Part shown: piece after piece, positions 1 to 16,825 of the stretch
Numbering within the stretch: position 1 is the stretch's first letter
Layout of the letters: every line of letters begins with the position of its first letter
IMG/VR virus record: IMGVR_UViG_3300030098_004539
Span: 1-64,000 of that record
Length of the DNA stretch: 64,000 bases
Reading direction: 5' to 3' (one strand)
DNA from: a virus
Translations under genes and position numbers: made by a program
The notes under the pieces: model-generated
The model's database searches: none
Seen by the model: only the letters and a program-made list of their open reading frames with translations
Told to the model about the DNA's origin: nothing

Positions 1-780
1 AATGATGCTTCCGATGACGCTGATGTTGACGTTGTAAAAGATAAAGAGAGAAAGAAAGAAAGCCTATATAGGGCTGCAAGAGATAAAAGGTTAGCAGAGG
101 CGTTTGGTGTAAATCCTCGAACAGACATATATAGAGATGAATTACCTGAGTTTGAGGATTTCCCAGAACAACCTAGATATGGGGGAGAGAAAGGGCTTCC
201 TATTTGGAAAAAGACTTCTGACGAGAAGCAATATTACGCCAAAGATTGGGAAAAGAAAGAGCGCCCTATAAACAGCTTTAAGTCTTGGGTAGACGGGTTT
301 AGAAGTAGCTTGTCGGAACACAGAGAGTCGTTACTCGATAAGTATGGCATCCCTAAAAACTCTAGGAATCAAAATGCTGACCAAAAAGAGTTTTTAGACT
401 ATATTCGAGATTCTGAAAATCAGCTTAAAGAAGATATGGCTCGGAAACTACGTGAAGAGTCTGACGACTTTGGTGATTTATCAGATAAAGAACAACAACA
501 TATTCTAGGGTTAATAAAGAAATCCGTGGATAATAGTACGAGTCGGATCGGAGACGTAAGTATGCTAGGACTTTTCTTAGACATTAACCTGTTTAAAGCC
601 CTCCCTTTAGGGGAGTCTCAAAAAATTAAAGCGTTTAAAAATTCATTCGGACGCACCTCTAGTGGCGTAAACCCCCCTACGATGAATACGGGGGAGTTAG
701 AGGCTGAAGAAGAAAAAGAAGCAGAGCGCAAAGATAAGAAAGAGATGGAAAAGAGTCTTAATCTCTACGTGAGTTGTTAA
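1..780 (+). CDS. Partial (5' truncated) charged hypothetical protein, candidate internal head protein
   Basis: Frame 1 is open from base 1 to TAA at 778-780, so the 310 start in the ORF track is an edge artefact. Contains GLFLDINLFKA and MEKSL motifs. Confidence 0.75.
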   Translation, partial: NDASDDADVDVVKDKERKKESLYRAARDKRLAEAFGVNPRTDIYRDELPEFEDFPEQPRYGGEKGLPIWKKTSDEKQYYAKDWEKKERPINSFKSWVDGFRSSLSEHRESLLDKYGIPKNSRNQNADQKEFLDYIRDSENQLKEDMARKLREESDDFGDLSDKEQQHILGLIKKSVDNSTSRIGDVSMLGLFLDINLFKALPLGESQKIKAFKNSFGRTSSGVNPPTMNTGELEAEEEKEAERKDKKEMEKSLNLYVSC

Positions 781-781
781 A

Positions 782-3700
782 ATGAGTGACTACGAAGATA
801 TAAATAAAGGTTCTGAAGAAGGGTCTGGTGACTCCGCTGGCTCTGCCGGGGCTTTTAAGCCGCACGTACACGTCAAGCGAGGCATTAAAGATATCCAGCC
901 GATTAAGGGATCTTTTAAGCCTAAAAAGTGTGTTAAAACTGTGAGCTATCGTGGACGACCTCGGTACATCTGCCCCGCGTCTGGAGGAGAAACCGCAGTC
1001 CATAGTTTAGAGAATCTTCCTGTTAAACCAGAAGATACTCCGCGTAAATTAGCTGAAATTGCACAAACTGCCCCAGAACACTTAATTACTCCCAAAAGGC
1101 AACGAGAAGAGCCTCAAGAAGTACAAGCCGCTTTGAGAAACCGCCCCACAAGCATTCACTTACAGGATGTTGAAGAAGCCGGCCCAGATACAGAACATGA
1201 CCACCTACATTACCACTCTCCCAACGAGGCTACCGAGAAAGAATCGGATGCAATTATCTTAAAAGATAGTAAGCGCAAGTCTGGTGACGACGACGATGAC
1301 GGTGATGTCAAAAAAGGCCTGTTTATAACAGACTTGGTTAAGGGTAAGAAGCCTAAGATTGCTAAACCTATTAAGGCCCCTAAGAGGTCTAAACCTTCTT
1401 CTGGAAAAGCGCCTACTAAGAAAGCGCCTACTAAGAAAGCTCCTACTAAGAAAGCTCCTGGCGTCTACATTAAAGATGTTCGGCCCACTCTTAAGCCTCG
1501 TACTCAGGAGTCTAAAAAGAAGTTTAAAGACGATTTCCTTAATTTTCATCTTCGCCGCCCTAAGCAGAGTTCTTCTAAAGCGCCTGGTCGTAAATCAGAC
1601 CCTCTCGGCTCAATAATGCAGAGATTGCACCGCGACTATGGAGACAATTTTTTAAGTCCTGGTGCGGCCAAAAGGCCTTTAAGCTCTGCGGCCATACCTG
1701 TACCAGATTCGTACAGAGGAGGGGCGCTGACCGAAACAGAGAAGAAATACGGGAGAGGAGTTACGTCTAACTTTTTATCCGACAGTTCTAATCTTCCTGG
1801 CGGCGTTGCAAAACTCAAGAGCGGAGGGTTCATTGTTCCTGGAAAAGTAGGAATTCCTTTAGACGCCTTCTTTACATATAAAAAGCCTAAACAGTTTTTG
1901 TCGCAATTTTCTGATAAAGCTGTTTGGAGAGCAAAAATAACGCACGGCGCAGATCCCGTTAAGGGTCCTAAAATTTATAATAATTTAGAGGATGCGCTTG
2001 CGAGCCAGGAAGGTACTGAGTCAGAAGCAGACGAGTATATCACGCGGATTAACTGGAATGCGTTTAAAAAAGCTAATGACGGATTTACTCGCGGAGGAGA
2101 AGTACAATATCCAGAGTCTTTTAAAGTCCGTATTGGCCGGGAAGTAAAAACCGTACGTACTAGCGGTAAATGGTTTGGACGGTATGTTAAACCTTACTTT
2201 ACTCCAGGAAGGGACAGTTACGGTCGAAAGAAGATGGCTCCTGAGCAGGTTCTCAGTAAGTATATACGAGCAGTATACGATCGAGAAAATGAGCCGCCAC
2301 CAAAACCTGGTCGCGCCACCTTAAGGGCTGATAGAAAGAAGGGAACTTCTGGAGGCACGATAGATTCTGACGGAAATCTAAAGATTCGTACTCCTGCACA
2401 GTATGATGATCCTGGCGGTCGGAAGTTTGATCCTGCACCTCTTACGGATAAGGATTGGAAAGAAATCAAAGCTAGTATGGCTAAAAAGAAGGAAAAGGAG
2501 CTTAAGCGAGAAGCTGAGAGACGAGCGGAGGCGAAGCGACAAGGGCAAACTCCCGAAGCACAAAGAAAGTTTCGAGAAGAACTGAAGCGGATGAAGTATA
2601 CTCGGGAGCCTACTGTTGGAGAGTTTCTTTCTACTGTAGGCGAAGCTGCTTTATTTGTAGTAGATGCTCCTGTGATTGTTGGAGGTAAACTTGCTCAAAA
2701 AATTCCAACAGTTGCTCGCAATGCGGGCAAAGCTCTTGGTATTACCCTTAGTGCAGGTAAAGCTGCTGATGTAACACACAAAATGCGTACTGCCGTTATT
2801 GCGGTCTACAACAACGCCCAAGGGGTTAAAACGGCAATTTATGCAAAGACTGCTAAAGAAGCAGATAAGGTTCGAAAGCAGGTTGCAAATATGCCATCGT
2901 TTAACCGACTTGTCACTGCGGGAAGAGGAGGTGGTAAATCACCTATGCGCGTTGGCGTTACTAATCCTCGTCGTACAGCAAGAACTGCTGCACAGCGAAG
3001 AGCAGATGTTAGCCAACTTTACCCTACTGGTACTCCGTCACGCGTTCGTGTACCAAAAAAACGCCCCCCAACAAGAAAGAGTCCTAGCACCCCTTCACGC
3101 GTTCCTGACAAAATAAAGACACCGCCTAAGGCTAAACCTAAAAAGCCTACGGACAAACCTACACCTGAGCTTCCTCCTGTCCCTAAACCTACTAGGAGGC
3201 CTCCAGGATCTAAGCCTAAGCCTGTTCGTAGAAGGCGACAAGCACCTCGAAGAAGGCGTAAAGATACTCCTACAGAGAAGCCTCAGCAGAAGCCTACAGA
3301 TAAGCCGCAGCAGAAGCCGCAGCAGAAGCCTAAGGATAAGCCGCAGCAGAAGCCTAAGGATAAGCCGCAGCAGAAGCCTAAGGATAAGCCTAAGGGTAAG
3401 GATAAGCCTAAGGGTAAGGATAAGCCTAAAACTAGAAGCGCAATTAAACGCGCAGCTAGGCAATTACTCGCTGCTGATCGTGTTGAAGCTCCTGCAAAAG
3501 AAAAGCCTCCAAAGAGGGATAAAAAGAGAAAGAAAAAGAAGAAGAAGAGAAGAAGGTTTATTATTGCCGACGATAATCGTCGTATATATGAGGATACTCA
3601 ACGAAAAGAGGAGAAGGTTGCTCCTTTGCGCGAAGAGTTGCGACGAAAAGGTAGAAAGAAGGAAGAAGAGGAAGATGATGATTTAGCGGCCATCATCCGA

Positions 3701-3958
3701 AGAGCCAAAAAGAGACACCGACTTCAAACTTTAGATGATCGTTATTCTCAGATTGGTAAAGAAGGTAAACGCGACGTTGAAGATTTAGCTAGTCGCGCTG
3801 AGGCACGAGCTATGTTCTACAAAAGTCAGGCATTCATAGCCCCCTATGTACGGCAGGTTCGTAACAAGAAAATTTCTTTAAAAGAGGCTTTAGATAAAGT
3901 TCCTTGGTGGATGCAAGATGAGCTTTTAAGTCGATTACGAAGAAAGAAACGTCGCTAA
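782..3958 (+). CDS. Large Lys/Arg/Pro-rich low-complexity protein, candidate DNA-binding internal head protein
   Basis: 1058-aa ORF abutting the previous stop; KAPTK and KPQQKPKD repeats, poly-K/R runs, GLFITDLVKG motif. Confidence 0.7.
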   Translation: MSDYEDINKGSEEGSGDSAGSAGAFKPHVHVKRGIKDIQPIKGSFKPKKCVKTVSYRGRPRYICPASGGETAVHSLENLPVKPEDTPRKLAEIAQTAPEHLITPKRQREEPQEVQAALRNRPTSIHLQDVEEAGPDTEHDHLHYHSPNEATEKESDAIILKDSKRKSGDDDDDGDVKKGLFITDLVKGKKPKIAKPIKAPKRSKPSSGKAPTKKAPTKKAPTKKAPGVYIKDVRPTLKPRTQESKKKFKDDFLNFHLRRPKQSSSKAPGRKSDPLGSIMQRLHRDYGDNFLSPGAAKRPLSSAAIPVPDSYRGGALTETEKKYGRGVTSNFLSDSSNLPGGVAKLKSGGFIVPGKVGIPLDAFFTYKKPKQFLSQFSDKAVWRAKITHGADPVKGPKIYNNLEDALASQEGTESEADEYITRINWNAFKKANDGFTRGGEVQYPESFKVRIGREVKTVRTSGKWFGRYVKPYFTPGRDSYGRKKMAPEQVLSKYIRAVYDRENEPPPKPGRATLRADRKKGTSGGTIDSDGNLKIRTPAQYDDPGGRKFDPAPLTDKDWKEIKASMAKKKEKELKREAERRAEAKRQGQTPEAQRKFREELKRMKYTREPTVGEFLSTVGEAALFVVDAPVIVGGKLAQKIPTVARNAGKALGITLSAGKAADVTHKMRTAVIAVYNNAQGVKTAIYAKTAKEADKVRKQVANMPSFNRLVTAGRGGGKSPMRVGVTNPRRTARTAAQRRADVSQLYPTGTPSRVRVPKKRPPTRKSPSTPSRVPDKIKTPPKAKPKKPTDKPTPELPPVPKPTRRPPGSKPKPVRRRRQAPRRRRKDTPTEKPQQKPTDKPQQKPQQKPKDKPQQKPKDKPQQKPKDKPKGKDKPKGKDKPKTRSAIKRAARQLLAADRVEAPAKEKPPKRDKKRKKKKKKRRRFIIADDNRRIYEDTQRKEEKVAPLREELRRKGRKKEEEEDDDLAAIIRRAKKRHRLQTLDDRYSQIGKEGKRDVEDLASRAEARAMFYKSQAFIAPYVRQVRNKKISLKEALDKVPWWMQDELLSRLRRKKRR
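1406..1459 (+). repeat. 15-bp tandem repeat (about 3.5 copies) encoding KAPTK
   Basis: aaagc(g/t)cctactaag repeated in tandem. Confidence 0.9.
3278..3430 (+). repeat. Tandem 12/24-bp repeats encoding KPQQKPKD / KPKGKD
   Basis: aagccgcagcagaagcctaaggat units repeated. Confidence 0.9.
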
Positions 3959-3967
3959 AGGGATAAG

Positions 3968-4852
3968 ATGTCATCTTATAATCATCGGTCTTCTAAAAAA
4001 TTAGGTTGGACGCCTCAATGGTTTGGTGTGTCTGAGTTTGGAGACGATCTTCAAGAAGCTATTAAAGAGTTCCAAGGGGAATATGAAGACTTAAAAGTAG
4101 ACGGAATGTGTGGTCCGGTTACTTACCGGAGAATAAAGTTAGAAAGGGACACACAAGACATTGGTCCCTCTCACGGAGAGAAGATATTAATAGGTGGAAA
4201 ACTGTTTCCTATACCTTGGGATAAAGTAATAATTCCAGGGGAGAATGGAGCTTTAGAGTTAACTAAAGGTTTTCGCCGTAAAAAAGACCGATATATAAAT
4301 ATGGTCATTACACACTGGGATGTCTGCACCTCTGCTAAAAAGTGTAGGAATGTTCTTGCCGCTAAGAATATATCGACACACTTTTGTATCGACTGGGATG
4401 GCACTATCTATCAGTTTATGGATGTGATGCACGAGGGGTGGCATTCTGGGGTAGGTAAGATCAACCGACAGAGTGTTGGAATCGATTTGAATAACCCAGT
4501 TTATACAAAATATAATAAAATTTTGGTAAAACGAGGACAACCAGAACGGCCTGTGATAAGCGGTTATAGTATTAATGGTTGGAAGCCGAAGGAATTTTTA
4601 GGTTTCCATCAAGTACAAATTGATGCTTATATAGCTTTATTGGCTGGGTTAAATGCCCACTTGCCTGATTTAAACCTAATTCCTACTGGCGATACGGGAA
4701 ATCCCAAAGTGATCAAGACTATTCCTTTGGCTAAAGCCGCTTCTGAGGGCGGCGTAATGCACCATGCCCATGTAAAGAAGCGTAAGTGGGACACAGCAGG
4801 GGTTCACCTGTCCGAGTGCTGTGAAGCTGCTAAAGGGTTAGTTGTAGAATGA
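3968..4852 (+). CDS. Endolysin: N-terminal peptidoglycan-binding domain plus Amidase_2 (N-acetylmuramoyl-L-alanine amidase)
   Basis: IKEFQ...LKVDGMCGPVT (PG_binding_1-like); ITHWD, ISTHFCID.DGTIYQ, GWHSG..NRQSVGID, HHAHV..KWD (amidase_2-like). Confidence 0.85.
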   Translation: MSSYNHRSSKKLGWTPQWFGVSEFGDDLQEAIKEFQGEYEDLKVDGMCGPVTYRRIKLERDTQDIGPSHGEKILIGGKLFPIPWDKVIIPGENGALELTKGFRRKKDRYINMVITHWDVCTSAKKCRNVLAAKNISTHFCIDWDGTIYQFMDVMHEGWHSGVGKINRQSVGIDLNNPVYTKYNKILVKRGQPERPVISGYSINGWKPKEFLGFHQVQIDAYIALLAGLNAHLPDLNLIPTGDTGNPKVIKTIPLAKAASEGGVMHHAHVKKRKWDTAGVHLSECCEAAKGLVVE

Positions 4853-5973
4853 GGCTTTATCTAGACATAGACTTGTATAAGGCTGCTTCTGGGCCACCCT
4901 CTGAGGAGTATGAATTTTCTCCTCTGCGATTTAGTGGGTTGCCCCCCACTAAAGCTAATATAGATGAGCAGATATGGGTGGCTGCTCAAAAGTACGACAT
5001 ACCTGAAATTTATGATGCGCTTGTTGCTACCGCTAAACAGGAATCTGGCAGAACTCATTGGAGGAATCGTGGTAGGGGTAAGATTATTACGAGTCCTACG
5101 GACGCTCAGGGTGTTATGCAGTTAATGGCACGGACTGCTCGGGGGTTGGGTGTAGACCGTAAGGACTGGCGACAAAATATTTGGGGCGGTGTTAAGCTAT
5201 GGAGTATTAATTACAAGCAGGCTCTTAAGTCTGGTATGTCGCCTTCAGATGCTGTGGATTACGCAGCTATGGCTTATTATTCTGGCGGTGCGGGGGGTAA
5301 AGATCCTTCACAAAATACCAGTGCGGTAGAGGTACATAACCAGCGAGCGTTAGCTCGTCACAGACGTAAAAACCCAAACGCAACTATTTGGGACGTTCCT
5401 AGTAGCCAATTAAAGGGTGCGCCTAGTCAAGTATCTAAGTTTGGTGGTATTAAAAACTGGCGTAAAAATATGCAACGGGCCATGTCTCGGGGTGCTGGTA
5501 TTGATTCAACTACTGGCAAGAAGACATTTGGTGGTGCATTAGACAGGTACGCGAGAGGTATTAAGCGTCGTAGTGAGGCAGATCGTCACTATGTTCGTGT
5601 AGGTAAAGATAGAGCCCAGGCCGAAAGGCATGGGCTTAAGGGGTATACTGAAAGAGATAGCTCAGGTCGAGGGATTGCTAGTATGCCTATTAGGCAGACA
5701 ATGGCGAGGCCGGAAGACTTACGCCCTACGCCTTCTAAGCCTAAGTCTGTAGCGTCTGAGGGTTTGTATTTAAAAAGTCCTGTAGCTGCCCCTGCTAGGA
5801 AACAGGCTGAGACTAAGCGTGTTGCTGGACTAGACGCTGCCAGTAAAGATTTAGGTCTTCCGGCTCCGTCTAAAGTGTTAAGTAGACAACCTAAGTCTGT
5901 TGCGGTTCAGCCTCGACCTCCGGTTAAAGTTAGTAAGTCGTTATTTCAATCAGAATATTTTATTGAGGTATAA
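4849..5973 (+). CDS. SLT-family lytic transglycosylase with basic disordered C-terminal tail
   Basis: AKQESG catalytic Glu motif, AQGVMQLM..TA, NIWGG, AMAYYSG; ATGA overlap with the endolysin gene. Confidence 0.85.
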   Translation: MRLYLDIDLYKAASGPPSEEYEFSPLRFSGLPPTKANIDEQIWVAAQKYDIPEIYDALVATAKQESGRTHWRNRGRGKIITSPTDAQGVMQLMARTARGLGVDRKDWRQNIWGGVKLWSINYKQALKSGMSPSDAVDYAAMAYYSGGAGGKDPSQNTSAVEVHNQRALARHRRKNPNATIWDVPSSQLKGAPSQVSKFGGIKNWRKNMQRAMSRGAGIDSTTGKKTFGGALDRYARGIKRRSEADRHYVRVGKDRAQAERHGLKGYTERDSSGRGIASMPIRQTMARPEDLRPTPSKPKSVASEGLYLKSPVAAPARKQAETKRVAGLDAASKDLGLPAPSKVLSRQPKSVAVQPRPPVKVSKSLFQSEYFIEV

Positions 5974-5975
5974 AA

Positions 5976-8045
5976 ATGGGGCTATTAGATAAAGCTCTGA
6001 GTAAAGTATTATCGCCTTCGATTATTACCCCTACTGCTGAAGAGCTAGCTAAGGGGTGGAAGAAGATTTCTGGTACTGCTCCGGCGGGTCCTCCTAAGGC
6101 TATGACTTGGGACCCGATGTCCCTTGTTTACTCTTTGGGATATAAAGACCGACGAAGTAACCTTACGTACGATATTTTACGTCAGATGGTGGGGTCTTTA
6201 AGTGTGTTAGCGGCTATTGTTAATACGCGAGTTAATCAAGTAGCTACTTTTACCTCTCCTTATCGTCGAACTCGTAACCTTGGTTTTGAGATTAAACATA
6301 AAGACCGGGATCACCGTCTTTCTAAGTCGGAAAAGCGGTTTATTGTTGAGCTAGAGTCGTTCATCTCTAATTGCGGAAAGTCTAAGGTAAATAAGTTTAG
6401 TACTAAGCCTAGGGATAACTTCGAGCAATTTACTCGCAAGGTCATTAGAGATCGAATGACATATGATCAAATGACGTTTGAGATTGTTCCTGACCGGAAA
6501 GGTCTTCCTTATGAGTTTGTTGCTGTTGATGCAGCAACAGTACGTCTTGCGGCAGACCCTAGCGCCGAAAAATATAGAAATACTCGACAAGAAAAGAAAG
6601 AGCTTAAAGAGTTTTTAGAAAACTATTCAGGCTCTGCCTTAGCATACCCAGTACTTCAAGAACCTAGTAAGCGCGGTAAAGCGTCTTTTGTGCAAGTCTG
6701 GCAAGGGTCTATCGTTCGGGCGTACACGCGGCAAGAACTAGCATTTTGTATTGCTAACCCCCGCACAGACATTAAGTCTAACGGTTACGGGTACGCTGAG
6801 ACAGAACAGCTTGTAAATATTATTACGTCTCAACTGTGGGCGGAAGAATATAACCGTAACTTCTTTAAGCAGGGTGCTGCTCCTAAAGGATTGCTTAATA
6901 TTCGTGGAGATAATATTTCTCCAGAACAACTCGAAGCATTTAAGCGCCAGTGGGTGGCTAATGTTGCGGGTACTGAAAATGCGTGGCGCACTCCTATTCT
7001 TCAAAGTGAAGAAATTCAGTACCTCAACATGCAAACTAACAACCTGGATATGGAGTACTCTCGTTGGTTAGAGTACTTGATCAAGGTGATTTGCGCTGTT
7101 TATCTAATTGCTCCCGAAGAGATTGGTTTCTACCTGTCCCCCGGCGGCATGCAGCAGCCTATGTTCGATACGAACAACGAGTGGAAGCTAAAAGCCTCTA
7201 AAGACCGAGGACTACGACCATTACTTCGATTTTATGCAGATGCTCTTAATAGTAATGTTATCGATAAAATCGACGACCGGTTTTACTTGGACTTTGTCGG
7301 TCTTGACGAGCTTACAGAGAAAGAACGTATTGAACTCAGGAATCAACAAGTTCAGTTCTTTAGGACTGTTAATGAGATTCGCGCCGATGAAGATTTAGCC
7401 CCTATTGATGACGGGGACATTATCTTAAATCCAATTTACCTCCAAAAAATTCAGATGGAACACACCTGGAAAATGGAGGCAGAGCAGCGAAAAGAAGCTA
7501 AGAAAGCTCAAGATGAGCAACTTGCTATGCAAAAGAAGCAAATGTCTATGCAGGAGCAAGCACAGCAACAGCAGATGCAACAGCAACAGCAGATGCAACA
7601 GCAGGCGCAGCAGCAAATGGGTGCTGCACCAGAAGAAGGACAGCCTGGACAAGAGGGTCAGCCTCCAGAACAGGAAGGTCCGTCGATCGCACCATCTATT
7701 GACGAACTACGTGCACAAGGCGCAGAACCCGAAGCACAGCCCGCTCCTGAAGAAGGTGCTCCTCAACAAGAAGGTGCTCCCCCTGAAGAAGTTCAAGAAG
7801 GTGCTCCTCAACAAGAAGGTGCTCCCCCTGAAGAAGTTCAAGAAGCTGCACAAATGGAAGAGCAAGTCTCTCCCGAAGGTGTAGAGGAAGAAGCTGCCGT
7901 AGAAGAGCAAACATCCCCGGAAGAAGCAGCACAAGTTGCGCCTGAAGAAGCTCCAAAAAGTAAAAAAGAGCAAATACAGGAAATTTTAAATTCCCTTCCC
8001 CCTGAGATGTTGGTTAATAATACCAAGAACGTTGACGAGGAATAG
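5976..8045 (+). CDS. Portal protein (SPO1/Twort-like) with Gln/Glu/Pro-rich C-terminal extension
   Basis: AIVNTRVNQV, NPRTDIKSNGYG, YNRNFFKQG..PKGLLNI, LEAFKRQW, DMEY..WLEYLI, SKDRGLRPLL, TVNEIRA. Confidence 0.93.
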   Translation: MGLLDKALSKVLSPSIITPTAEELAKGWKKISGTAPAGPPKAMTWDPMSLVYSLGYKDRRSNLTYDILRQMVGSLSVLAAIVNTRVNQVATFTSPYRRTRNLGFEIKHKDRDHRLSKSEKRFIVELESFISNCGKSKVNKFSTKPRDNFEQFTRKVIRDRMTYDQMTFEIVPDRKGLPYEFVAVDAATVRLAADPSAEKYRNTRQEKKELKEFLENYSGSALAYPVLQEPSKRGKASFVQVWQGSIVRAYTRQELAFCIANPRTDIKSNGYGYAETEQLVNIITSQLWAEEYNRNFFKQGAAPKGLLNIRGDNISPEQLEAFKRQWVANVAGTENAWRTPILQSEEIQYLNMQTNNLDMEYSRWLEYLIKVICAVYLIAPEEIGFYLSPGGMQQPMFDTNNEWKLKASKDRGLRPLLRFYADALNSNVIDKIDDRFYLDFVGLDELTEKERIELRNQQVQFFRTVNEIRADEDLAPIDDGDIILNPIYLQKIQMEHTWKMEAEQRKEAKKAQDEQLAMQKKQMSMQEQAQQQQMQQQQQMQQQAQQQMGAAPEEGQPGQEGQPPEQEGPSIAPSIDELRAQGAEPEAQPAPEEGAPQQEGAPPEEVQEGAPQQEGAPPEEVQEAAQMEEQVSPEGVEEEAAVEEQTSPEEAAQVAPEEAPKSKKEQIQEILNSLPPEMLVNNTKNVDEE
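7751..7845 (+). repeat. 45-bp exact tandem duplication (EGAPQQEGAPPEEVQ x2) in the portal tail
   Basis: Direct reading of the sequence. Confidence 0.9.
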
Positions 8046-8047
8046 CT

Positions 8048-9139
8048 ATGAAATACCGTTCGTACGAAAAGTCTATTAATGCAAAGAAAAAGGACCTTGA
8101 CGAAGAGGGCGAAAATGCTCCTGTTGAAGGTGAGGATCTGGCTAAGAATCGTAAACACGGGTACGCCGAACCACCCCTTATGTCTAATGTAAGGGCGTTT
8201 AATAAGTCCTTATTTAAGTCTGTTTCTCTTTCAAAGGCAGTAGTGGGAGAAAGATTACCTACTGGCCCAGCGAATATCTACTCTAAGAAGAATCGTGAGA
8301 GGTTGATTGAGGGAGCTAAAGAGGGAGCTAAAGCAGCGTGGGGGGCGCTAAAGAACATTCCCAATATCTTTAGGGACAGGAAGAAGGACGACGATCAGCT
8401 TCCCCCGCCCCCGAAAAGGTCCAAGGGTTCCAGCCCTTGGAAGAAGCCCCGGAGTAAAAAAAGTCCATATTATTTACCGCATAATATACCTGGGGCTCCT
8501 GATACTTATGAAGGTATGGAACGTCAGCGGAAACCTTCTTCTCCAAAGTCCACCTCAGGATCTGGGGTAACTAAGTTAGAGTCTGGTGGGTTTAAAGCTC
8601 CAGGCATTGATAAGACTTTTGCAACAGAAAAGGATGCGATTAATGCAATTAAAGAAGCAAAACCAGAGCGCATTTATAAGCCTTTAAAATTTGATGAAGA
8701 GAAGCATGGTCGGCCCACCCCAAGAATCGTGCCTGCACCTGTGAGTAAGTCCTTATTTAAGTCTTCTTACGGCTCAAAAGTAGGATCTCCATGCGATCTA
8801 GGCGGTTCTAAAGGGAAAAAGGCTCCAGAATGGGAAGAAGGTAACGTCTCCCATGAAAAGCCTCGCGAAGAAAATGGGCAATACACGCCTCCCGGATGGT
8901 CCGCTAAAGGCGAAGACGACGAGGATAAGAAGAAGAAAAAGGACGTAAAGAAGTCTATTACGGAACTTCGTTACGGTGCTCAACCTCTTCATGGGTTTGA
9001 TTTACACAAGTCTTGTGCTGTGTGTGGGCGACTTTCAAAGTCTGCCGGTGAAAAAGGTCATGAAGGACACAGCGGATGCTGTGAAGATTGTAAGAAATCT
9101 ATGAATTCCATGCGATGGCACGAGTCGCATCTCGCGTAG
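8048..9139 (+). CDS. Basic hypothetical protein with C-terminal Cys/His cluster (CAVC...CCEDC), candidate internal head protein
   Basis: 363-aa ORF directly after the portal; many hydrophobic-x-KS motifs. Confidence 0.7.
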   Translation: MKYRSYEKSINAKKKDLDEEGENAPVEGEDLAKNRKHGYAEPPLMSNVRAFNKSLFKSVSLSKAVVGERLPTGPANIYSKKNRERLIEGAKEGAKAAWGALKNIPNIFRDRKKDDDQLPPPPKRSKGSSPWKKPRSKKSPYYLPHNIPGAPDTYEGMERQRKPSSPKSTSGSGVTKLESGGFKAPGIDKTFATEKDAINAIKEAKPERIYKPLKFDEEKHGRPTPRIVPAPVSKSLFKSSYGSKVGSPCDLGGSKGKKAPEWEEGNVSHEKPREENGQYTPPGWSAKGEDDEDKKKKKDVKKSITELRYGAQPLHGFDLHKSCAVCGRLSKSAGEKGHEGHSGCCEDCKKSMNSMRWHESHLA

Positions 9140-9149
9140 GAGAATTAAC

Positions 9150-9560
9150 GTGGCAAAAGATAAAGCTAGAACTAAAGTTCCTTTAAATTCTCCTATGAGT
9201 AAAGATAGGAACCCCTCGTGGCGTAAAGACCAGTACTTAGACTCTAAGTACAAGGCTCCAGAAGCTGTGTGGCAACCCGCTAATCCTATTTTCCGCAGGT
9301 ACGCTAACGGTATGCTTGATTATGAGTATGCATGTGGAAAGATTTTTGACGCACTAGGGGTGGTTCAAGATCACGGATACCTTAGTGAGTTTGAAAAAGC
9401 TGCACTAAGCATCATTGTTCCAGGCATTGAGAACATTGGAGTGCCACCTAATGCCGTGGCTATGACAAAAGTTCGCCTTGCCCCAGAAGAAATAATGAAG
9501 CTTCGCATTATTGTCGCTCAAAAACAGAAAGACATTAAGAATTACCGTACAGGATGGTAA
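9150..9560 (+). CDS. Hypothetical protein
   Basis: GTG start with GGAG RBS; tight spacing with neighbours. Confidence 0.7.
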   Translation: MAKDKARTKVPLNSPMSKDRNPSWRKDQYLDSKYKAPEAVWQPANPIFRRYANGMLDYEYACGKIFDALGVVQDHGYLSEFEKAALSIIVPGIENIGVPPNAVAMTKVRLAPEEIMKLRIIVAQKQKDIKNYRTGW

Positions 9561-9563
9561 GAA

Positions 9564-10184
9564 ATGCCCAAGGGCCTCTACATATTAGACGACGTGTTCA
9601 AAGGAATACGTGTTGCAGGGGGTACTCCTTTTTTTAGCGGAGCTAAAGGCAAAGCTAAAGGGGAGTTTGGAGGTCTTTATGTAGGCGGCTCGAAGGGAAA
9701 AACTTCGTACGGCCCTAAAGGCGGCCACATTAAAAAGATAAGTCCTACTACTGGAAAACCTATCTACTATAAGAAGTATGAAGGGAAACGTTCAGTAAAA
9801 GTAGCCACGCCCACTGAGGGCGGAGGACCTCCTGAAGGCTACTCCACTTATGAAGCACATCCAGAACACGTTATTGGGAGAACTGGTAACGGGCATGATA
9901 TTCACGCGTTCTCTGGTATTAATAATACGAAGCATTATAAGTGGGATGATCACCGGGACGCTAGCCACGCCCACTTTACTCTTGCACAACACTTAATGAA
10001 TGTGCTTCGAGATAGGGCAGGGGGCGGAAAAGATCTGTCGAAACTTCAAGGTTTGATAGACGCACACTCTAAATTTGCCCAACACCACCGCAAGGAGTCT
10101 ATTAAGGACTTGCTTCACGGTAAGCAAAAATCACGATCAGAAGAAGATTTAAGTCTTCGTAGAGACCCCAAAGGTGGTAAATGA
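9564..10184 (+). CDS. Gly/Lys/His-rich hypothetical protein, candidate internal head protein
   Basis: N-terminal GLYILDDVFKG motif; GPKGG..TTGKPIY; His-rich helix. Confidence 0.7.
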   Translation: MPKGLYILDDVFKGIRVAGGTPFFSGAKGKAKGEFGGLYVGGSKGKTSYGPKGGHIKKISPTTGKPIYYKKYEGKRSVKVATPTEGGGPPEGYSTYEAHPEHVIGRTGNGHDIHAFSGINNTKHYKWDDHRDASHAHFTLAQHLMNVLRDRAGGGKDLSKLQGLIDAHSKFAQHHRKESIKDLLHGKQKSRSEEDLSLRRDPKGGK

Positions 10185-10357
10185 ACGTAGATTTTGAAAT
10201 TAATACCGTCAATATTTTGACAGGAGCGCTCAGAAAATCTCTTTCTGAACAAGACGATCCTGCAATGATTGCTATTAAATTATCTTTAATTAAAAGCGAC
10301 GTACAAAATATTAACGATGTAGAGAGATTGTTTAACAGGTTTTCAGTAGATGACTAA
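10181..10357 (+). CDS. 58-aa hypothetical protein, below the ORF-track size cutoff (MNVDFEINTVNILTGALRKSLSEQ...)
   Basis: ATGA overlap with the upstream stop; fills the gap and overlaps the next start; contains LRKS and LIKS. Confidence 0.7.
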   Translation: MNVDFEINTVNILTGALRKSLSEQDDPAMIAIKLSLIKSDVQNINDVERLFNRFSVDD

Positions 10358-10799
10358 TAACCACCTTACAGACCAGCAAATACAGGAGCATTTAGATACG
10401 TTGTCTAAGTCTAAATCTCTAGAAAGCTACTGTAATAACTGCGGAGACTGCTGTAGCCCCAGTGTATTGGTTAAAAGTACTAGAACTTCTCCTTTTAAAG
10501 TACTAGTTAAAGATTTAAAGTGTAAGTTCAGTAAGTCTGTTAACGGAGACAATACGTGTACCGTGTATAATGAGAGATTCAATAAGGCTCCCTGGTGTTT
10601 AGACCTTAAGGGTATGATTAAGGGTGGAGTAGCCCCGCTACATTGCCCTTATGTAGAGACCTTGAAGGGTTATAGCCCTACGTTAGAGTTAAATGACCCT
10701 CAATATAAGACTGTATTACCTCTTCTTAAGAAAGCAGTCTCGGAGGGAGATGTTTCTCCTTTTGCCTCGTTAGACATTAAGACATTTTTAGGAGATTAA
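10350..10799 (+). CDS. YkgJ-like CxxCxxCC putative Zn/Fe-S-binding protein
   Basis: YCNNCGDCC...LKCKF...TCTVYNER...WC pattern typical of the CxxCxxCC family. Confidence 0.8.
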   Translation: MTNNHLTDQQIQEHLDTLSKSKSLESYCNNCGDCCSPSVLVKSTRTSPFKVLVKDLKCKFSKSVNGDNTCTVYNERFNKAPWCLDLKGMIKGGVAPLHCPYVETLKGYSPTLELNDPQYKTVLPLLKKAVSEGDVSPFASLDIKTFLGD

Positions 10800-10800
10800 G

Positions 10801-11913
10801 ATGAGTTACTGGGATGCATCGTGTGACTTTCTTATTAAGAGTTTAGAAGATCTTAATAAAGCGAAACCTAAGCGGTCTAGTAAAACGCAATCTACTCCGG
10901 TTGATTCGCCGCAAACTAAGCTGAGTGAGTTTGAGAAGCAAACTCAAAAGTTTAAACCCGCAGATGCGAAAAAAGTTCATATAGGTGTGGAAGATCGTGC
11001 GAGGTTAAAAGCGGCCAAGGCCGGAACAACCTTTACACCTAAGCAGGGGGGTTCTGCTGGGAGGACGTTTACGGTCGTACCGTCTAAGTCGAAAGGTACG
11101 CCTCCTACTAAAAAAGAACGTATTGAGCTTGGACCACAGCCTCGTAGCTCACCAAATTATCGCCTGCAACCTGCCGGGGAAAAGGCTAGAGAACAGCGTA
11201 AGAGCCCTATCATGGATATGGTTATGGAAGGGAGGGATGACTCAGAAAAAGAATCTGTTTGGCCACAGGGTTTTAAATCTGCTGACACCTGGAACAAAAA
11301 AGTAAAAAAAGACTGGGACGAGGAAAAATCAAGTATATTGGATCACCTTTGGGGCGGAAGTAAGCAAACACGGAAACCGCCAGCACAGTTTGGTGCATAT
11401 GCTGACTTTAAAGAAAAAGCTAAAGAGTATCTTGGTAACAAGGCCGATAAATACTATTCGGGCATAAGATCTGGATCTGGTGGTGAAGGTAAATTTGGCG
11501 AGCTTACCGCTAAACAGAAAGCGATGATGGCGATCATAAAGCGCATGCCAAAGCATCAGCAAGATAGGATTAGAGATCACCATATAAAGCTAATGACGGG
11601 ACAAAAGTTGTCTCCGGCAGGAATTCGTACCAGGGTAGCGGCGCAAGTTGGAGCGTTTCAAAACCCAGAAGAGTTGAATAAATATGGTTGGGCGTATTTT
11701 AACCCTGATGTAGCTCAAATTATCGCGGTTAATTCTCTCACTGAGGGCGCTAGGAGGGCTTCGTCCGCCATTAAGAATATTGGTAGTGCGGTGGGTGAGA
11801 TTCTTTTTCAAAAAAATAGCAGTAAAAAACCTCGTCGCTTAAAAGCCTATAAAACTAAAAAGGAATGGGGACCCTCCGGGACCGATTTTGGAGACGACGA
11901 CTGGAAGCGGTGA
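10801..11913 (+). CDS. Basic hypothetical protein, paralog 1
   Basis: GGAG RBS; N-terminus MSYWDASCDFLIKSLEDLNKAKPK resembles the next gene. Confidence 0.75.
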   Translation: MSYWDASCDFLIKSLEDLNKAKPKRSSKTQSTPVDSPQTKLSEFEKQTQKFKPADAKKVHIGVEDRARLKAAKAGTTFTPKQGGSAGRTFTVVPSKSKGTPPTKKERIELGPQPRSSPNYRLQPAGEKAREQRKSPIMDMVMEGRDDSEKESVWPQGFKSADTWNKKVKKDWDEEKSSILDHLWGGSKQTRKPPAQFGAYADFKEKAKEYLGNKADKYYSGIRSGSGGEGKFGELTAKQKAMMAIIKRMPKHQQDRIRDHHIKLMTGQKLSPAGIRTRVAAQVGAFQNPEELNKYGWAYFNPDVAQIIAVNSLTEGARRASSAIKNIGSAVGEILFQKNSSKKPRRLKAYKTKKEWGPSGTDFGDDDWKR

Positions 11914-11926
11914 AGGAGTAATTAAG

Positions 11927-13057
11927 ATGAGTTTTTGGGACGATTCGTCAGAAATTTTGACTAAAAGTTTAGAACCGATGGTTAAGGCTAAACCTAAACC
12001 TAGGAAGCTGTCTGGGTTTGAGCAAAGCACGCTTGACTACAAGGACAAAGACAGCCCATCGGTTCATATGGGAGTAAAGGATCGCGCTCGACTAAAAAGG
12101 GTAACACCAACGTTCCCAATTGGCCCCGCAGGTAGCGGTAGTACTTTTACTCCTCAAGAAGGTGGATCTCAAGGCAAGACGCGGGTCGTTACAGACCGAA
12201 CCCCCGAAAAGGGTAAAATCCCTAGTGCTGAAGACTGGGCAAGACTCGGAAAGAAGGCGGCGGATGCAGCAAGTTTAGGGTTCAAAAAATTAAAACAGGA
12301 TGTGAAATCTGCGAATCCGCGCAGACTGAAAAAAGAAAGAATTATCAAAAAGGATACGGAAGAGGCTAAAGGCGTTAAACCGATGTCAGGCGCTGCCGAA
12401 GTAGTGAATAAAAAGACACGAGAGCAACACGAGAAAGACTCTCCCGGTTTCGGTAGTTTTCTTTTAGCCGCGTATGGGGCCGACGACCCTAAGAGCCCCA
12501 GAAGAGAAACTTTGCGTAAATTAAGTAACCTCGATAACGCAAAGTTTCGTAGGAATGTAGCCAAAAAGTTAGAAAACTCTTTAAATAACTTTAAACGGTA
12601 CCTAACAGGCAAAACTTCCGATGGAATTTTTGGTAAACCGCTTACTAGAGCACAAAAAAAGATAGGTGAGGTGTTTGAAGCGTTGCCTGAAAGTAAGAAA
12701 AAGAAAATTGCTGCACTGTACGCCGACAAACCTATGAGTTGGGGTGACTCCCTTACGGATTCCAGTTGGACTAAACCTCTCGGAAAGCTCGGAAATATTG
12801 AAAATCTAAGCGAAATGGGTGTCAAAACTCGCGCCAGAGGGGCAGCAGGATTAATTCAGTCAGAAAGAGACATCGGATTGATCCCACTTATGTTCAACCC
12901 AGACATGCACGCGTATCTAAACAATAGACCTTCGCCGGAAGGTCGCGCAGTTGCTCCTCTCCCAACAAAAAAGATGCGGAACCAATTTCAGTACTCGCCT
13001 AAATCGTTTCCTAAAGGCAAAAGCAGCTTCTCCATTAAAGAGCCTAAAAAGAGTTAA
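11927..13057 (+). CDS. Basic hypothetical protein, paralog 2 (start reassigned from 11888)
   Basis: ATG at 11927 follows AAGGAG; MSFWDDSSEILTKSLEPMVKAKPK aligns with the paralog 1 N-terminus. Confidence 0.75.
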   Translation: MSFWDDSSEILTKSLEPMVKAKPKPRKLSGFEQSTLDYKDKDSPSVHMGVKDRARLKRVTPTFPIGPAGSGSTFTPQEGGSQGKTRVVTDRTPEKGKIPSAEDWARLGKKAADAASLGFKKLKQDVKSANPRRLKKERIIKKDTEEAKGVKPMSGAAEVVNKKTREQHEKDSPGFGSFLLAAYGADDPKSPRRETLRKLSNLDNAKFRRNVAKKLENSLNNFKRYLTGKTSDGIFGKPLTRAQKKIGEVFEALPESKKKKIAALYADKPMSWGDSLTDSSWTKPLGKLGNIENLSEMGVKTRARGAAGLIQSERDIGLIPLMFNPDMHAYLNNRPSPEGRAVAPLPTKKMRNQFQYSPKSFPKGKSSFSIKEPKKS

Positions 13058-13066
13058 GGATAAATA

Positions 13067-13840
13067 ATGTCAGATGAGACTTTAAATTTTAAATTTTGGA
13101 TGCCTTTAAGTAAGGCAAAGGCGTCTAAAGATGGAAAAGCGAGGATTATCGAAGGGATTGCCTCTACTCCAGACTTAGATCTTCAAAATGAACGGGTAAA
13201 CCAGTCCGGTATTAACTTTGATTACTTTATTAATCATGGATATTTTAACTGGGACCATAAATCTGGAGCAGAAAACAAGATTGGAGAACCTTGGGAGGTT
13301 AAAGTCACCCCTAAAGGGCTTTACGTTAAAGGTATTATTTACAAAGGTAAAAAAGTTGCCGATGACGTATGGGAACATATTCAGTCTTTAGCTCAAAATC
13401 CCGGATCTAAGAGAAAAGTGGGCTTTTCTCTCCAAGGAAAGACAGTACGGCGTAATGGAAACAGCATTTTAAAGTGCTGGCTGCAAGATATTGCCATTAC
13501 TACTGCCCCAATTAACTACAATACGTACTTAGACGTTGTTAAATCCTTCAGTAAATATGAGTGGGTAAACTCTGAACTAGAGAAGACTCTTTCTGCGGGC
13601 TACGGGCACGCAGGAGGCGGCGCACTCGTTCCAGAATCTCTCGACGATAAAGAACGAGATTTAAAATATGGGGATAAAAAAGACGGTAGGAACCCTGGTA
13701 ATAAAAATAATAAAATTATTACAAAGAAAAGTCTTGCCAATCTCATACAACGTCATTTAGGTTACTCAAAAGATACTTCTGGACAACTTTCAGACGTTAT
13801 CTTCCGCATGTCAGACATTAGGAGAAAACAGAATGGCTAG
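13067..13840 (+). CDS. Prohead (capsid maturation) protease
   Basis: IIEGIASTPDLDLQNE, GYFNWDH, IGEP, GLYVKG, GFSLQG, IAIT..PIN; located upstream of scaffold and capsid genes. Confidence 0.92.
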   Translation: MSDETLNFKFWMPLSKAKASKDGKARIIEGIASTPDLDLQNERVNQSGINFDYFINHGYFNWDHKSGAENKIGEPWEVKVTPKGLYVKGIIYKGKKVADDVWEHIQSLAQNPGSKRKVGFSLQGKTVRRNGNSILKCWLQDIAITTAPINYNTYLDVVKSFSKYEWVNSELEKTLSAGYGHAGGGALVPESLDDKERDLKYGDKKDGRNPGNKNNKIITKKSLANLIQRHLGYSKDTSGQLSDVIFRMSDIRRKQNG

Positions 13841-14603
13841 TCAAATCACACCGATGCAGCCTGGAAATCATCAGCCGATGGGCGTTGATTGGGCTGGCAC
13901 CGACGTAGAGAGTGAAGAGAACGCAGAAGACCGCGATAGCATGCCTAACGGCACAGACTATAAGCCGGTTAAAAAGAGTTATCGTCTTTACAAGTCTCTT
14001 ATCCAAGATGAAGACCTTTTAAAGGCTATGGATGAAGACGAAGAAGAGAAGGAAAAGCACTTTGAAGGTGCTATGAAGGACGATAAAGACCATATCGCTG
14101 CTTTAGAGCGAGATGAAGAGGAAGAGAAGCGGGACGAAGAAGACGCCAAAATGCGTAAGTCTTTCTTTGAGGTAGTAGAAGAGAATCCTGTTCTCCTAAA
14201 AGGAATTTCTAGCTCACCGTTCTTGTACGAGATGGTCAAATCCATCGGATACTCTTTCCTTAACTTAGAAGACCAGATTGGTACTCAGATGCTGCAAATG
14301 GACATGCATCATGACCAGTTTGCTAAGAGTGTCGATGGCGTTTTTGAAAATATGAGCAAAAGCTTAGGTTTCATTAATGACACGGCTGATCAAGTTGATA
14401 TGCACAAGTCTGTAAGTGCGGATGGAAATGTGCAGTATCTTGAGAAGGGTAACTTCAGCGGTGAGGCCGGTCCTTCTCAAGGACAAGTTCTTCAGGCCCT
14501 TGTTAAGGGTGTTGAAGCCGGTCACATTTCGCCCACGGAAGTGATTAAATTTGAAACTACTGGGGCGGTATCTCCGCATATCCAGAAAAGCCTTGGATTA
14601 TAG
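13833..14603 (+). CDS. Scaffold-like protein A
   Basis: Acidic and helical; lies between protease and capsid; about 11 hydrophobic-x-K[SAG] motifs. Confidence 0.7.
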   Translation: MASQITPMQPGNHQPMGVDWAGTDVESEENAEDRDSMPNGTDYKPVKKSYRLYKSLIQDEDLLKAMDEDEEEKEKHFEGAMKDDKDHIAALERDEEEEKRDEEDAKMRKSFFEVVEENPVLLKGISSSPFLYEMVKSIGYSFLNLEDQIGTQMLQMDMHHDQFAKSVDGVFENMSKSLGFINDTADQVDMHKSVSADGNVQYLEKGNFSGEAGPSQGQVLQALVKGVEAGHISPTEVIKFETTGAVSPHIQKSLGL

Positions 14604-14614
14604 GAGAGATTAAG

Positions 14615-15376
14615 ATGTCTGACGGAATGTACGAATCAGAGATTCTAAAGTCGTTAGAGGCTTTAGATGAGATTCTGTCGAAAGCTAATCCTCATGTTCA
14701 AAATCTACAACCTGGAAATCATCAGCCTATGGGTGTTGATTGGGCCGGTACAGATGTAGAGAGTGAAGAGGATGAAAGCTACGCTGGTCACATCGCTGAG
14801 AATGGAACGGATTACGATCCTCCCAAGAGCGGTGGAAAGAAAAAGAAAAAGATGAGCAAGGCTTTCGAGGAAGCAGAAGAAAAAGAAGAGTTTGAAGAAG
14901 ACGAAGACGAAGACGAAGACGAGATGGACAAGGGGTATGGCTACGGCAAGTCCAGCGGGATGTCCAAAGGTGTCGAAGTCAGCGAGTTTCTTCACGAGCT
15001 TACGAAGTCTGTAGCTATTTACTGCTACGAATTAGAAGGCTTAATTACTAAGTCTTTAAATCAGATTCACGAGGAAAACGGTGCGATGTCGAAAGCTATC
15101 GCTGAAAACCTCGTCGCTCTAAACGATATTATCTCTAAATCACAAGATAATATCAATGAATACGCGGAGGGTCCTGCTCGGGGTCCGAAGAGTATGCTCG
15201 ATATGAGCAAGTCTATTTCTGGTTCGCAAGAGCCGGAGTTGTCCAAGAGTGTTGTTATCGGCGCTCTTATGAAAGGTGTTGAGGCTGGCACGGTTTCTCC
15301 TCTTGAGATCATCAAGGTGGAGCAGTTCGGCGTTCAAGCCATTAATCAAGATGTCGTCAAAAGTCTTTTAGCTTAG
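14615..15376 (+). CDS. Scaffold-like protein B (paralog of A)
   Basis: Shares QPGNHQPMGVDWAGTDVESEE and ALxKGVEAG.xSPxExIK with A; about 13 hydrophobic-x-K[SAG] motifs. Confidence 0.7.
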   Translation: MSDGMYESEILKSLEALDEILSKANPHVQNLQPGNHQPMGVDWAGTDVESEEDESYAGHIAENGTDYDPPKSGGKKKKKMSKAFEEAEEKEEFEEDEDEDEDEMDKGYGYGKSSGMSKGVEVSEFLHELTKSVAIYCYELEGLITKSLNQIHEENGAMSKAIAENLVALNDIISKSQDNINEYAEGPARGPKSMLDMSKSISGSQEPELSKSVVIGALMKGVEAGTVSPLEIIKVEQFGVQAINQDVVKSLLA

Positions 15377-15394: not shown

Positions 15395-16825
15395 ATGGTA
15401 CCTCAAATTAGCTTAGGAGACTACGACGGGCTGAACGGGTTCGGAACATCAACTACGGGAGATGTTAACGAACTGTCTAAGGCACTTAGCGCGGGATATC
15501 AGGTCTCTAATCAGACTGGTGGGTCTGCCCTTCGCGTTGAGAGTCTGGAAGCCAGCCTGAAAGTAGTCACATGGTCCAACAAACACATCAAGCTCTGGAA
15601 GAAGATTCCGAAGAGCCCAGCGTACTCAACGGTTGAGGAATACAACGTCCTTAGCCAGTACGGTGCAGCCGGAGCCTTTGGCTTCACGCGAGAGGGAGAG
15701 CTTCCTGGTACTCAGGACAGCACTTACACTCGTATGACTGCACTGGTGAAGTTCATTGGAACGACTCGTTCTGTGACTCACCCAGCTACGTTGGTTAATC
15801 CGGCACACGGAGATGTTATCGCTCTGGAGAACCAGAACGGTATCCTTTGGATGTTGGAGCGTGTTGAGGATTCACTCTTCCACGGTAACTCTGGTCTTGC
15901 CTTTGATGGTGAAGCAGAGCAGTGGGATGGTCTGGATGCTCTCATCAATAACGCTAACGTTATTGACCTTGAGGGACAGCCTCTTCAAGAAGCTGACATC
16001 GAAGAAGCCTCTAACTTGGTCATTGAAAACTACGGTTACCCCACGGACATGTTCCTTGGTACCCGTGCGATGAGTGACCTCGTCAAGACCTTCTACCCCC
16101 GCGAGCGCGTGAATATGCCTGCTCCTTCGGAAGGTAAGGTTGGTCTGTCGGTTACCTCGATGGCTACGCAAGCTGGAACGATTGAGTTCAACCCTGACGT
16201 CTTTATTCGTCAAGGTAAGCAGCCTCCTGCGGCTGCTACGAGCGCTAACGCTCCTGCTACTCCGGCGGCTATTGTTAACGGTGGTGCTGCTGGTACTGCA
16301 AGCTGGGCGAAGTCGCTTGGTGCTGCTGCTGGTGGATTTTCCTACGCAGTGACTGCATGTAACCGGTTTGGTGAGTCCGCTCCCGTTCTTTCGGCAACAT
16401 ACAATGTTGGCGCTGGATCGACGACGGCTAACGGTATTCAGGTTACTAACGCTGCTGCGATTGGTGCAAATCCTCCTGAGTTCTTTATCATCTACCGTAC
16501 GCGGAACATTGGTTCCGGTGGTGCAGCACCTGCGGACCTTTCTCAGTACAGTGAGATTGCTCGCGTGCGTTGTACCAACCAGGGCGCTGGTGTGATGGGT
16601 GTTCAAGCTCAAGACCTCAACGCTACTATGCCCTTCACGGAAACGGCTTACTTGGGAGAGCTTACCCCTTCGGTGCTCACCTTCCGTCAGCTTGCTCCTC
16701 TGATGCGTATGGATCTCGCGGTTCTGGCTCCTGCCTACCGTTGGATGATTATGCTCTACGGTACGCCTATCCTGTTTGCTCCGCGCAAGTGGGTCCGGTT
16801 GACCAATATTGGTCGCCTTAGCTAG
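15395..16825 (+). CDS. Major capsid protein (SPO1/Twort-like)
   Basis: LSKALSAGY..GSALRVESLE, STVEEY, WDGL..LI...NVIDL.G, GELTP, LAPLMRMDLA, YG.PIL.AP.KW; codon bias typical of high expression. Confidence 0.95.
   Translation: MVPQISLGDYDGLNGFGTSTTGDVNELSKALSAGYQVSNQTGGSALRVESLEASLKVVTWSNKHIKLWKKIPKSPAYSTVEEYNVLSQYGAAGAFGFTREGELPGTQDSTYTRMTALVKFIGTTRSVTHPATLVNPAHGDVIALENQNGILWMLERVEDSLFHGNSGLAFDGEAEQWDGLDALINNANVIDLEGQPLQEADIEEASNLVIENYGYPTDMFLGTRAMSDLVKTFYPRERVNMPAPSEGKVGLSVTSMATQAGTIEFNPDVFIRQGKQPPAAATSANAPATPAAIVNGGAAGTASWAKSLGAAAGGFSYAVTACNRFGESAPVLSATYNVGAGSTTANGIQVTNAAAIGANPPEFFIIYRTRNIGSGGAAPADLSQYSEIARVRCTNQGAGVMGVQAQDLNATMPFTETAYLGELTPSVLTFRQLAPLMRMDLAVLAPAYRWMIMLYGTPILFAPRKWVRLTNIGRLS

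Follow-up and report, generated by a model that had tools for sequence, protein, structure and literature searches.

A short lysine-ended motif shared by unrelated head-block proteins of an uncultured SPO1-like phage: a candidate protease-removed loading leader

Why do proteins with no other resemblance to one another share the same ten residues, and what could a peptide that ends at a putative protease site be doing in them? The question is raised by the first 64,000 nucleotides of the virus record IMGVR_UViG_3300030098_004539 (the window, meaning the whole stretch of DNA analysed), in which an initial annotation had noted four peptides of the form L[YF][LI]x2-3[LV][FYV]K[AG] and had proposed that they act as a portable packaging tag resembling that of phage T4. 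The window makes up the first half of a circular assembly of 128,195 bp, whose first bases recur at 128,056, and derives from an uncultured, SPO1-like phage whose nearest cultured relatives are Herelleviridae, with 42-47% identity on the portal and capsid proteins; its plus strand carries every long open reading frame (ORF) in the first 62 kb. We find that the motif exists, is restricted to the head-gene block and is conserved in relatives. As to its role, we lean towards a short propeptide that earmarks proteins for the assembling head and is clipped off by the prohead protease, by analogy a functional counterpart of the T4 capsid targeting sequence.

The motif, its carriers and its conservation

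A six-frame scan recovered all four peptides, the pattern itself matching at 571-600, 1319-1345, 4855-4884 and 9576-9605, each time directly after the G or MR that had been noted with it. The claim that two copies stand at the extreme N-terminus holds for the ORFs at 4849-5973 and 9564-10184. The copies and their carriers are as follows, with the putative cut marked by an arrow.

568-600, plus strand: motif copy 1, inside protein A (residues 591-601 out of 660); ends K600↓A; kept in 3/3 family members
1316-1345, plus strand: motif copy 2, internal, residues 179-188 of protein B; 2-residue spacer; a second K↓G site just before
4849-4884, plus strand: motif copy 3, extreme N-terminus of protein C; ends K11↓A; 14/14 family members
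9564-9605, plus strand: motif copy 4, extreme N-terminus of protein F; ends K13↓G; 14/15 family members
1-780, plus strand: protein A, 660 residues, the last 259 codons in the window; gene start at genome position 126854, spanning the assembly ends
782-3958, plus strand: protein B, 1,058 residues, Lys/Pro-rich, no known family
4849-5973, plus strand: protein C, SLT transglycosylase, 374 residues (Pfam SLT, E 1.1e-4; phrog_342, 'internal virion protein with endolysin domain', E 1.6e-7)
9564-10184, plus strand: protein F, 206 residues, no known family
Genome 117592-126885, upstream of protein A: giant protein, 3,097 residues (about 340 kDa by length), no family

A fifth copy lies outside the window, at the extreme N-terminus of the giant protein (residues 5-14), and since the pattern had been written from the four window copies, this match is the cleaner test. 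Across a whole-genome set of 125 non-overlapping ORFs (39,692 residues), the pattern matches five times; in 300 shuffles it averaged 0.023 matches and never exceeded one. All five matches fall within the head-gene block (genome 117592-128056 and window 1-10184). Three of the five start no more than five residues from the Met and two are internal. The initial annotation would have given up its proposal if the motif occurred as often in non-virion proteins; no match was found outside the head-gene block anywhere in the genome.

Could the resemblance be due to chance, or be a functionless remnant of common descent or of recent copying between neighbouring genes? The pattern was derived from the four copies themselves, the carrier genes are neighbours, and a motif-like stretch within the protease gene (13316-13348, plus strand) shows that such strings can arise for structural reasons. 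This stretch, in which the match itself spans 13319-13348, was considered as a sixth copy and rejected: its score of 10-14 is within the range of shuffled maxima, and it forms a conserved part of the protease domain, found also in the phages CP-51 and Adastra. Against an origin by chance or descent stand the fifth copy, the codons of the motif, which differ between copies, and the lack of other similarity among the carriers. All-against-all BLASTP gave low-complexity matches only, and neither Pfam nor PHROGs returned a match for proteins A, B, F or the giant. In a leave-one-family-out test, with scoring matrices built from the orthologue copies of all families but one, every left-out family was recovered: its window copy ranked fourth in the proteome, right behind the three training families, with scores of 20.6, 19.5, 12.6 and 22.6 against mean shuffled maxima of 11.4-12.5; in three of the four tests, those of families A, C and F, the single largest shuffled maximum lay above the score of the left-out copy. 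Finally, orthologues at 26-45% identity keep the motif. An explanation without function, already disfavoured, thus seems to us highly improbable.

To compare relatives, we scanned viral contigs using the transglycosylase, portal and protease as queries, which yielded ten distinct related contigs, and homologue searches added one protein for the giant (P0001, 35% identical over the first 400 residues), 15 proteins for the transglycosylase and, for protein F, nine representatives out of 1.84 billion. A generalised pattern, [L/H/V]-[Y/F]-[L/I/V]-x3-[L/I]-[F/Y]-K↓[A/G], was defined post hoc, and it is present at the same place in 36 of 37 orthologues (family A 3/3, C 14/14, F 14/15, giant 2/2, proteins with a swapped body 2/2, and a protein on contig L004 1/1), so that the motif does not lack conservation in homologues, the other outcome that the initial annotation had named as fatal. 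The count leaves out P0002, which duplicates the window sequence, the N-terminally truncated P0006 and P0013, the pair P0020 and P0025, whose matches begin only at query residue 106 or 118, P0026 (E 1e-4) and the repeated contigs L001/L009, L006/L012 and L017; family B was counted separately. Residues at each position, counted from the cut over 32 distinct instances, are:

P9: L 17, H 7, V 5
P8: Y 18, F 13 (Y or F in 31/32)
P7: L 21, I 7, V 4
P6 to P4: variable, mostly D/E/S/N
P3: L 21, I 7
P2: F 17, Y 13
P1: K 32
P1': A 16, G 14, S 2
P2': mostly V or I

In two families the motif is clearly better kept than its surroundings: members of family A share 26-33% identity overall versus 6-7 of 10 residues in the motif, and the giant protein 33% overall versus 8 of 10. 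In protein F, K13 is one of 13 invariant columns of a 13-sequence family alignment. A distant relative, represented by a 100,984-bp record, has three matches to the generalised pattern versus 0.175 expected, all in the head block; one begins at residue 2 of a 3,791-residue protein, another lies in a 394-residue protein and the third is the protease's own motif-like stretch.

Of protein B, the C-terminal 45 residues, including V-P-W-W-M-Q-D, are kept in 4/4 relatives, and the remainder varies, the proteins being 192-1,058 residues long. A wider pattern, aromatic-x4-hydrophobic-x-K-small, gave 10 matches in 9,947 head residues versus 10 in 29,789 others, a threefold enrichment too loose to define the motif, and we discarded it; it did, however, reveal three repeats in a 933-residue protein of no family encoded upstream of the giant (genome 114749-117550; L014:4750-7551). 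These internal repeats, S-[N/H]-W-D-x-F-D-L-x-K↓G, each follow another K↓S site and look like a second class of leader, whose P8 aromatic and L-x-K↓G ending align with the motif studied here. Paralogues at window positions 10801-10860 and 11927-11986 start M-S-[Y/F]-W-D and have two nested cut sites each.

The putative cut site of the prohead protease

The last residues of the motif direct attention to the genes for head assembly, which lie together in the order protease, two scaffolds, capsid protein, the protease homologue adjoining the scaffold and capsid genes:

13067-13840, plus strand: prohead (head maturation) protease of SPO1/Herelleviridae type (phrog_1028, E 6.6e-51; tblastn to annotated prohead proteases)
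13833-14603, plus strand: scaffold paralogue A; 12 hydrophobic-x-K↓[SAG] sites; C-terminal end K-S-L-G-L
14615-15376, plus strand: scaffold paralogue B; 13 hydrophobic-x-K↓[SAG] sites; C-terminal end K-S-L-L-A
15395-16825, plus strand: major capsid protein (Pfam SU10_MCP; SPO1 Gp6.1 structure 9vel, E 3.7e-109)
15479-15484, plus strand: putative maturation cut of the capsid protein, K29↓A30, aligned with the first residue of phi812 chain 9row_B

The capsid protein is 42-47% identical to its Herelleviridae homologues, for example those of CP-51 and SPO1-like phages, and its L-S-K29↓A30 aligns with V-V-K24↓S25 of phi812. There, the 439-residue chain 9row_B begins at S25 and the full-length chain 5lii_P has 463 residues; these deposited chain lengths are the reason for placing the mature end of the phi812 protein at S25. 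V-V-K↓S is also found in phage ISP. The two scaffolds, which are about 255 residues long and share 34% mutual identity, have 12 and 13 hydrophobic-x-K↓[SAG] sites, and over the head block as a whole such sites number 9.35 per 1,000 residues versus 3.49 elsewhere in the genome. The position after the small residue, P2', is hydrophobic at 87% of the scaffold sites versus 42% in non-head proteins. The scaffolds of cultured Herelleviridae show the same kind of sites (CP-51 13, Adastra 10 and ISP 7) and the sheaths of all three have none. The SPO1-type prohead protease would thus cut at hydrophobic-x-Lys↓small, and the end of the motif fits such a site, P3-P1' agreeing with the consensus from capsid protein and scaffolds.

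Is the motif, then, only a strong or extended cleavage site, marking trimming or cuts between modules, with the carriers loaded by other parts of their sequence such as the K-S-L tails described below? This is the main rival to a loading leader. The consensus for cutting ends every copy, two copies are internal, and in proteins B and F a K↓G site stands directly before the motif, so that the decapeptide could be an excised linker; one protein F orthologue, on contig L006, has a cut site and no triplet, and the K-S-L endings, on 4 of the 125 ORFs against 0.58 in shuffles, offer another candidate for binding the shell. The upstream half of the motif speaks against this reading. At 23 scaffold sites, P9, P8 and P7 are hydrophobic in 26%, 17% and 39% of cases versus a background of 30%, without hydrophobic or aromatic excess, and the cut site of the capsid protein likewise has no upstream aromatic triplet. 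As neither scaffold nor capsid sites have the triplet, the protease does not need it, and the motif goes beyond a site for cutting, the triplet being a separate conserved feature with an aromatic P8 in 31 of 32 distinct instances. Family B orthologues on contigs L003 and L004 keep the triplet even though the aligned position has no Lys-ended site, and trimming 11-13 residues from an N-terminus would have no obvious purpose unless the peptide had acted earlier. Taken together, we regard a role in cleavage alone as rather unlikely, if the alternative to be taken most seriously.

The protease itself gave no match when its sequence was compared with solved structures, and a model from a nine-row alignment was unusable, with a mean predicted local distance difference test (pLDDT) score of 38.8. 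Its C-terminal part (window 13571-13678, residues 169-204) resembles the N-arm of the capsid protein (15467-15583, residues 25-63), cut site included, the two window proteins being 41% identical over 39 residues. The window capsid protein and the protease of relatives share 55% identity over 42 residues, and CP-51 shows a like resemblance. Judging from these sequences, the protease may be built into the procapsid through mimicry of the capsid N-arm.

Swapped bodies and C-terminal tails

The motif is modular, as is best seen in the slot between the amidase and the portal. The features needed here are:

3968-4852, plus strand: amidase (family match; peptidoglycan-binding domain)
5976-8045, plus strand: portal protein (Pfam Phage_portal, E 2.8e-23)
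8048-13057, plus strand: seven ORFs, no family match in Pfam or PHROGs
751-777, plus strand: C-terminal tail of protein A, beginning K-S-L; kept in 3/3 family members
5935-5970, plus strand: C-terminal tail of protein C, starting with K-S-L; also present on a non-homologous body (P0016 and P0017)

In relatives, the transglycosylase of this slot is replaced by P0016 (318 residues) or P0017 (328 residues; L007:1402-2385), whose bodies show no similarity to the transglycosylase; P0016 has no match in Pfam or PHROGs. Both nevertheless keep the N-terminal leader and the C-terminal tail, and over its final 28 residues P0016 shares 89% identity with the window protein C. The initial annotation had also pointed to C-terminal strands following KS, and both of these close their ORFs, which stop at 780 and 5973.

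That a leader stays when the body changes could also be expected of an inhibitory or folding propeptide, which would silence proteins that degrade the wall or are harmful in other ways until it is removed in the head. One carrier is indeed a transglycosylase, and the slot protein appears to be trimmed at both ends like T4 Alt, about whose propeptides the same question has been raised (PMC5694885). The same ten residues, however, are found on a 3,097-residue and a 206-residue protein and inside two long, low-complexity proteins with no enzyme domain, and so short a peptide, with its variable centre, would hardly be able to inhibit folds that are unrelated; we consider this explanation improbable.

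A K-S-L followed by 1-10 residues closes four of the 125 ORFs, namely those of carriers A and C and of both scaffolds, against the 0.58 expected, with a maximum of four in 500 shuffles, and these tails are kept in all orthologues inspected. In tailed phages, the C-termini of scaffolds usually bind the capsid, and the K-S-L tails are therefore a second candidate address, possibly a better one for binding the shell. The cargo-loading peptides of encapsulins offer a parallel, being short, C-terminal and uncleaved and docking cargo inside an HK97-fold shell; we considered them for the tails of the scaffolds and of carriers A and C, for which only the shared ending was counted. Combining the two ends, one may imagine a swappable address in which a Lys-ended N-terminal leader and a K-S-L tail, the scaffolds' own ending, bracket the cargo, letting any body enter an SPO1-type procapsid beside the scaffold, with a single protease freeing both. 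We hold such a two-ended system to be a speculative and fairly unlikely extension. The bodies with tags range from a wall-cutting enzyme to the 3,097-residue giant.

Two neighbouring proteins deserve mention. The amidase (window 3968-4852) lies inside the cargo block and has neither leader nor tail, making it an internal negative example; it may be an endolysin rather than a packaged protein. In a 363-residue protein (window 8048-9139), eight candidate cut sites were counted, and K↓S-L-F-K↓S occurs twice among them.

A possible loading leader beside known systems

How would a loading leader work? The 3' half of the motif (a hydrophobic residue, an aromatic, Lys, and then Ala or Gly, usually followed by a hydrophobic) would be the site at which the prohead protease cuts, and the 5' half would consist of an aromatic-centred hydrophobic triplet and three mostly acidic or polar residues ahead of that site. 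The triplet, perhaps together with the tail, would dock the carrier to the core or the shell of the procapsid before the cut; once the head is assembled, the protease would clip the leader after the Lys, and the mature proteins (the 3,097-residue giant, the transglycosylase, the 206-residue protein and fragments of the 660- and 1,058-residue proteins) would be left in the head beside the DNA and would probably accompany it into the host. We infer each of these steps, namely cutting and docking of the leader and packaging and ejection of its carriers, and it is the position of their genes that suggests that the carriers are head-internal. The reasoning behind the early role of the peptide is that, if a conserved N-terminal stretch of 11-13 residues is removed, whatever it does must precede its removal. 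In favour of a leader, the motif is common to unrelated proteins of one block and moves with swapped bodies, and T4 and P1 use N-terminal signals in a similar way.

Several observations weigh against a loading leader. The 36/37 count depends on a pattern that was written after the data were seen, and in families C and F the identity within the motif is about the same as the overall identity and no better. The protein F orthologue on contig L006 keeps only the last four positions, I-F-K↓A, and lacks the triplet. In family B, orthologues keep the motif only loosely: the one on L005 has an I-I-I variant ending N-K↓A, and those on L003 and L004 retain the hydrophobic triplet, the aligned position being without a Lys-ended site. 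Two copies are internal (residue 592 of 660 and residue 180 of 1,058), unlike the leaders of T4, and cutting after the Lys is deduced from homology and site statistics. A tblastn search of 50,697 phage records found protein F in no cultured phage. Nor do structural models lend support to a docking element, because the leader of protein F (residues 1-47) is predicted with a pLDDT below 50 in a model of mean 56.4, which is compatible with a free extension but too weak; a prediction of the complex between the capsid protein and residues 1-40 of protein F, run without controls, scored 0.00 in two runs and speaks neither for nor against binding. Of the portable, T4-like tag first proposed, then, the ending at a probable protease site and the travelling with a swapped body stand, and the targeting function is drawn from analogy, with two of five copies internal and the last four positions equal to the cleavage consensus. 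On balance, we still find a protease-removed loading leader somewhat probable.

The T4 capsid targeting sequence, carried by the internal proteins IPI-III and Alt, was reportedly described by Mullaney and Black in 1996. In T4, short N-terminal propeptides target head-internal proteins (PMC3012670, PMC5694885); they have 10-20 residues, and Alt is trimmed at both ends (PMC5694885). The gp21 protease cuts at I/L-x-Glu (PMC12991175), and the scaffold is cut to pieces at the same kind of site (PMC12991175, PMC5694885). The likenesses are as follows: a short peptide is common to unrelated proteins, ends at the prohead protease's own site, a putative one in the window phage, and is presumed to be removed after loading; the window carriers A and C appear, like Alt, trimmed at both ends; and the scaffold is dense in sites, of a Lys type here and I/L-x-Glu in T4. 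The differences are that the motif ends in Lys in 32/32 distinct instances and belongs with an SPO1-type protease (phrog_1028), whereas T4 has Glu and gp21; that the tags share no sequence similarity; that two copies are internal here and one carrier has 3,097 residues; and that loading has been demonstrated in T4 and is here a prediction. With Lys in place of Glu and another type of protease, the motif is analogous to the T4 capsid targeting sequences but does not belong among them.

Other phages offer partial parallels. The 250-kDa DarB protein of P1 has an N-terminal capsid signal within its first 30 residues, with key residues 6-10, as shown with a reporter (PMC9024508). Its position at the N-terminus of a very large protein recalls our giant of about 340 kDa; the P1 signal, however, is known on one protein, whereas the motif is on five and ends at a cut-site consensus. 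In the giant phage SPN3US and in phiKZ-like phages, the prohead protease processes head-internal and ejection proteins, and the propeptides, thought to target the prohead, are mostly over 100 residues long in SPN3US and are not described there as one shared short motif (PMC5694885). Closer to the window phage, the Herelleviridae phi812 and SPO1 have the same protease family, a homologous capsid cut position and local sequence, and site-dense scaffolds. In SPO1-like Adastra and Staphylococcus phage ISP, by contrast, the portal, protease, scaffold and capsid genes are contiguous, with no leader-bearing cargo genes beside the portal.

Two cultured phages show comparable peptides. In Bacillus phage CP-51, two proteins encoded upstream of the portal have a different, shorter Lys-ended motif, L-[I/V]-[I/V]-D-I-S-K↓A, at the N-terminus of gp27 and at residues 59-66 of gp28 (L013 4694-4720 and about 6150-6176); gp28 ends in a K-S-L-G-L-type tail like the window scaffold, and CP-51, a cultured member of the Herelleviridae, may use a related tag. 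In Chryseobacterium phage MA9V-3, cultured on a Gram-negative host, a related protease is fused to a longer protein of 532 residues (L015 14715-16313), and among the proteins next to it there are candidate sites ending in Lys and a C-terminal K-S-L tail; this phage could be the nearest tractable system.

We found no capsid targeting leader described for SPO1-type phages in the literature, supplementary tables not being covered. If the leader does load proteins, it would provide a sequence rule for naming what an uncultured SPO1-like lineage packages, and probably injects, including one protein of 3,097 residues, and would mean that the address-tag solution of T4 arose again with Lys replacing Glu in the protease specificity. 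A tag some 12 residues long and ending in a protease site could then be tried for loading foreign proteins into such heads. Were the two-ended system true as well, cargo would be readable from sequence across the uncultured lineage, and the pair of tags would be reusable for foreign proteins.

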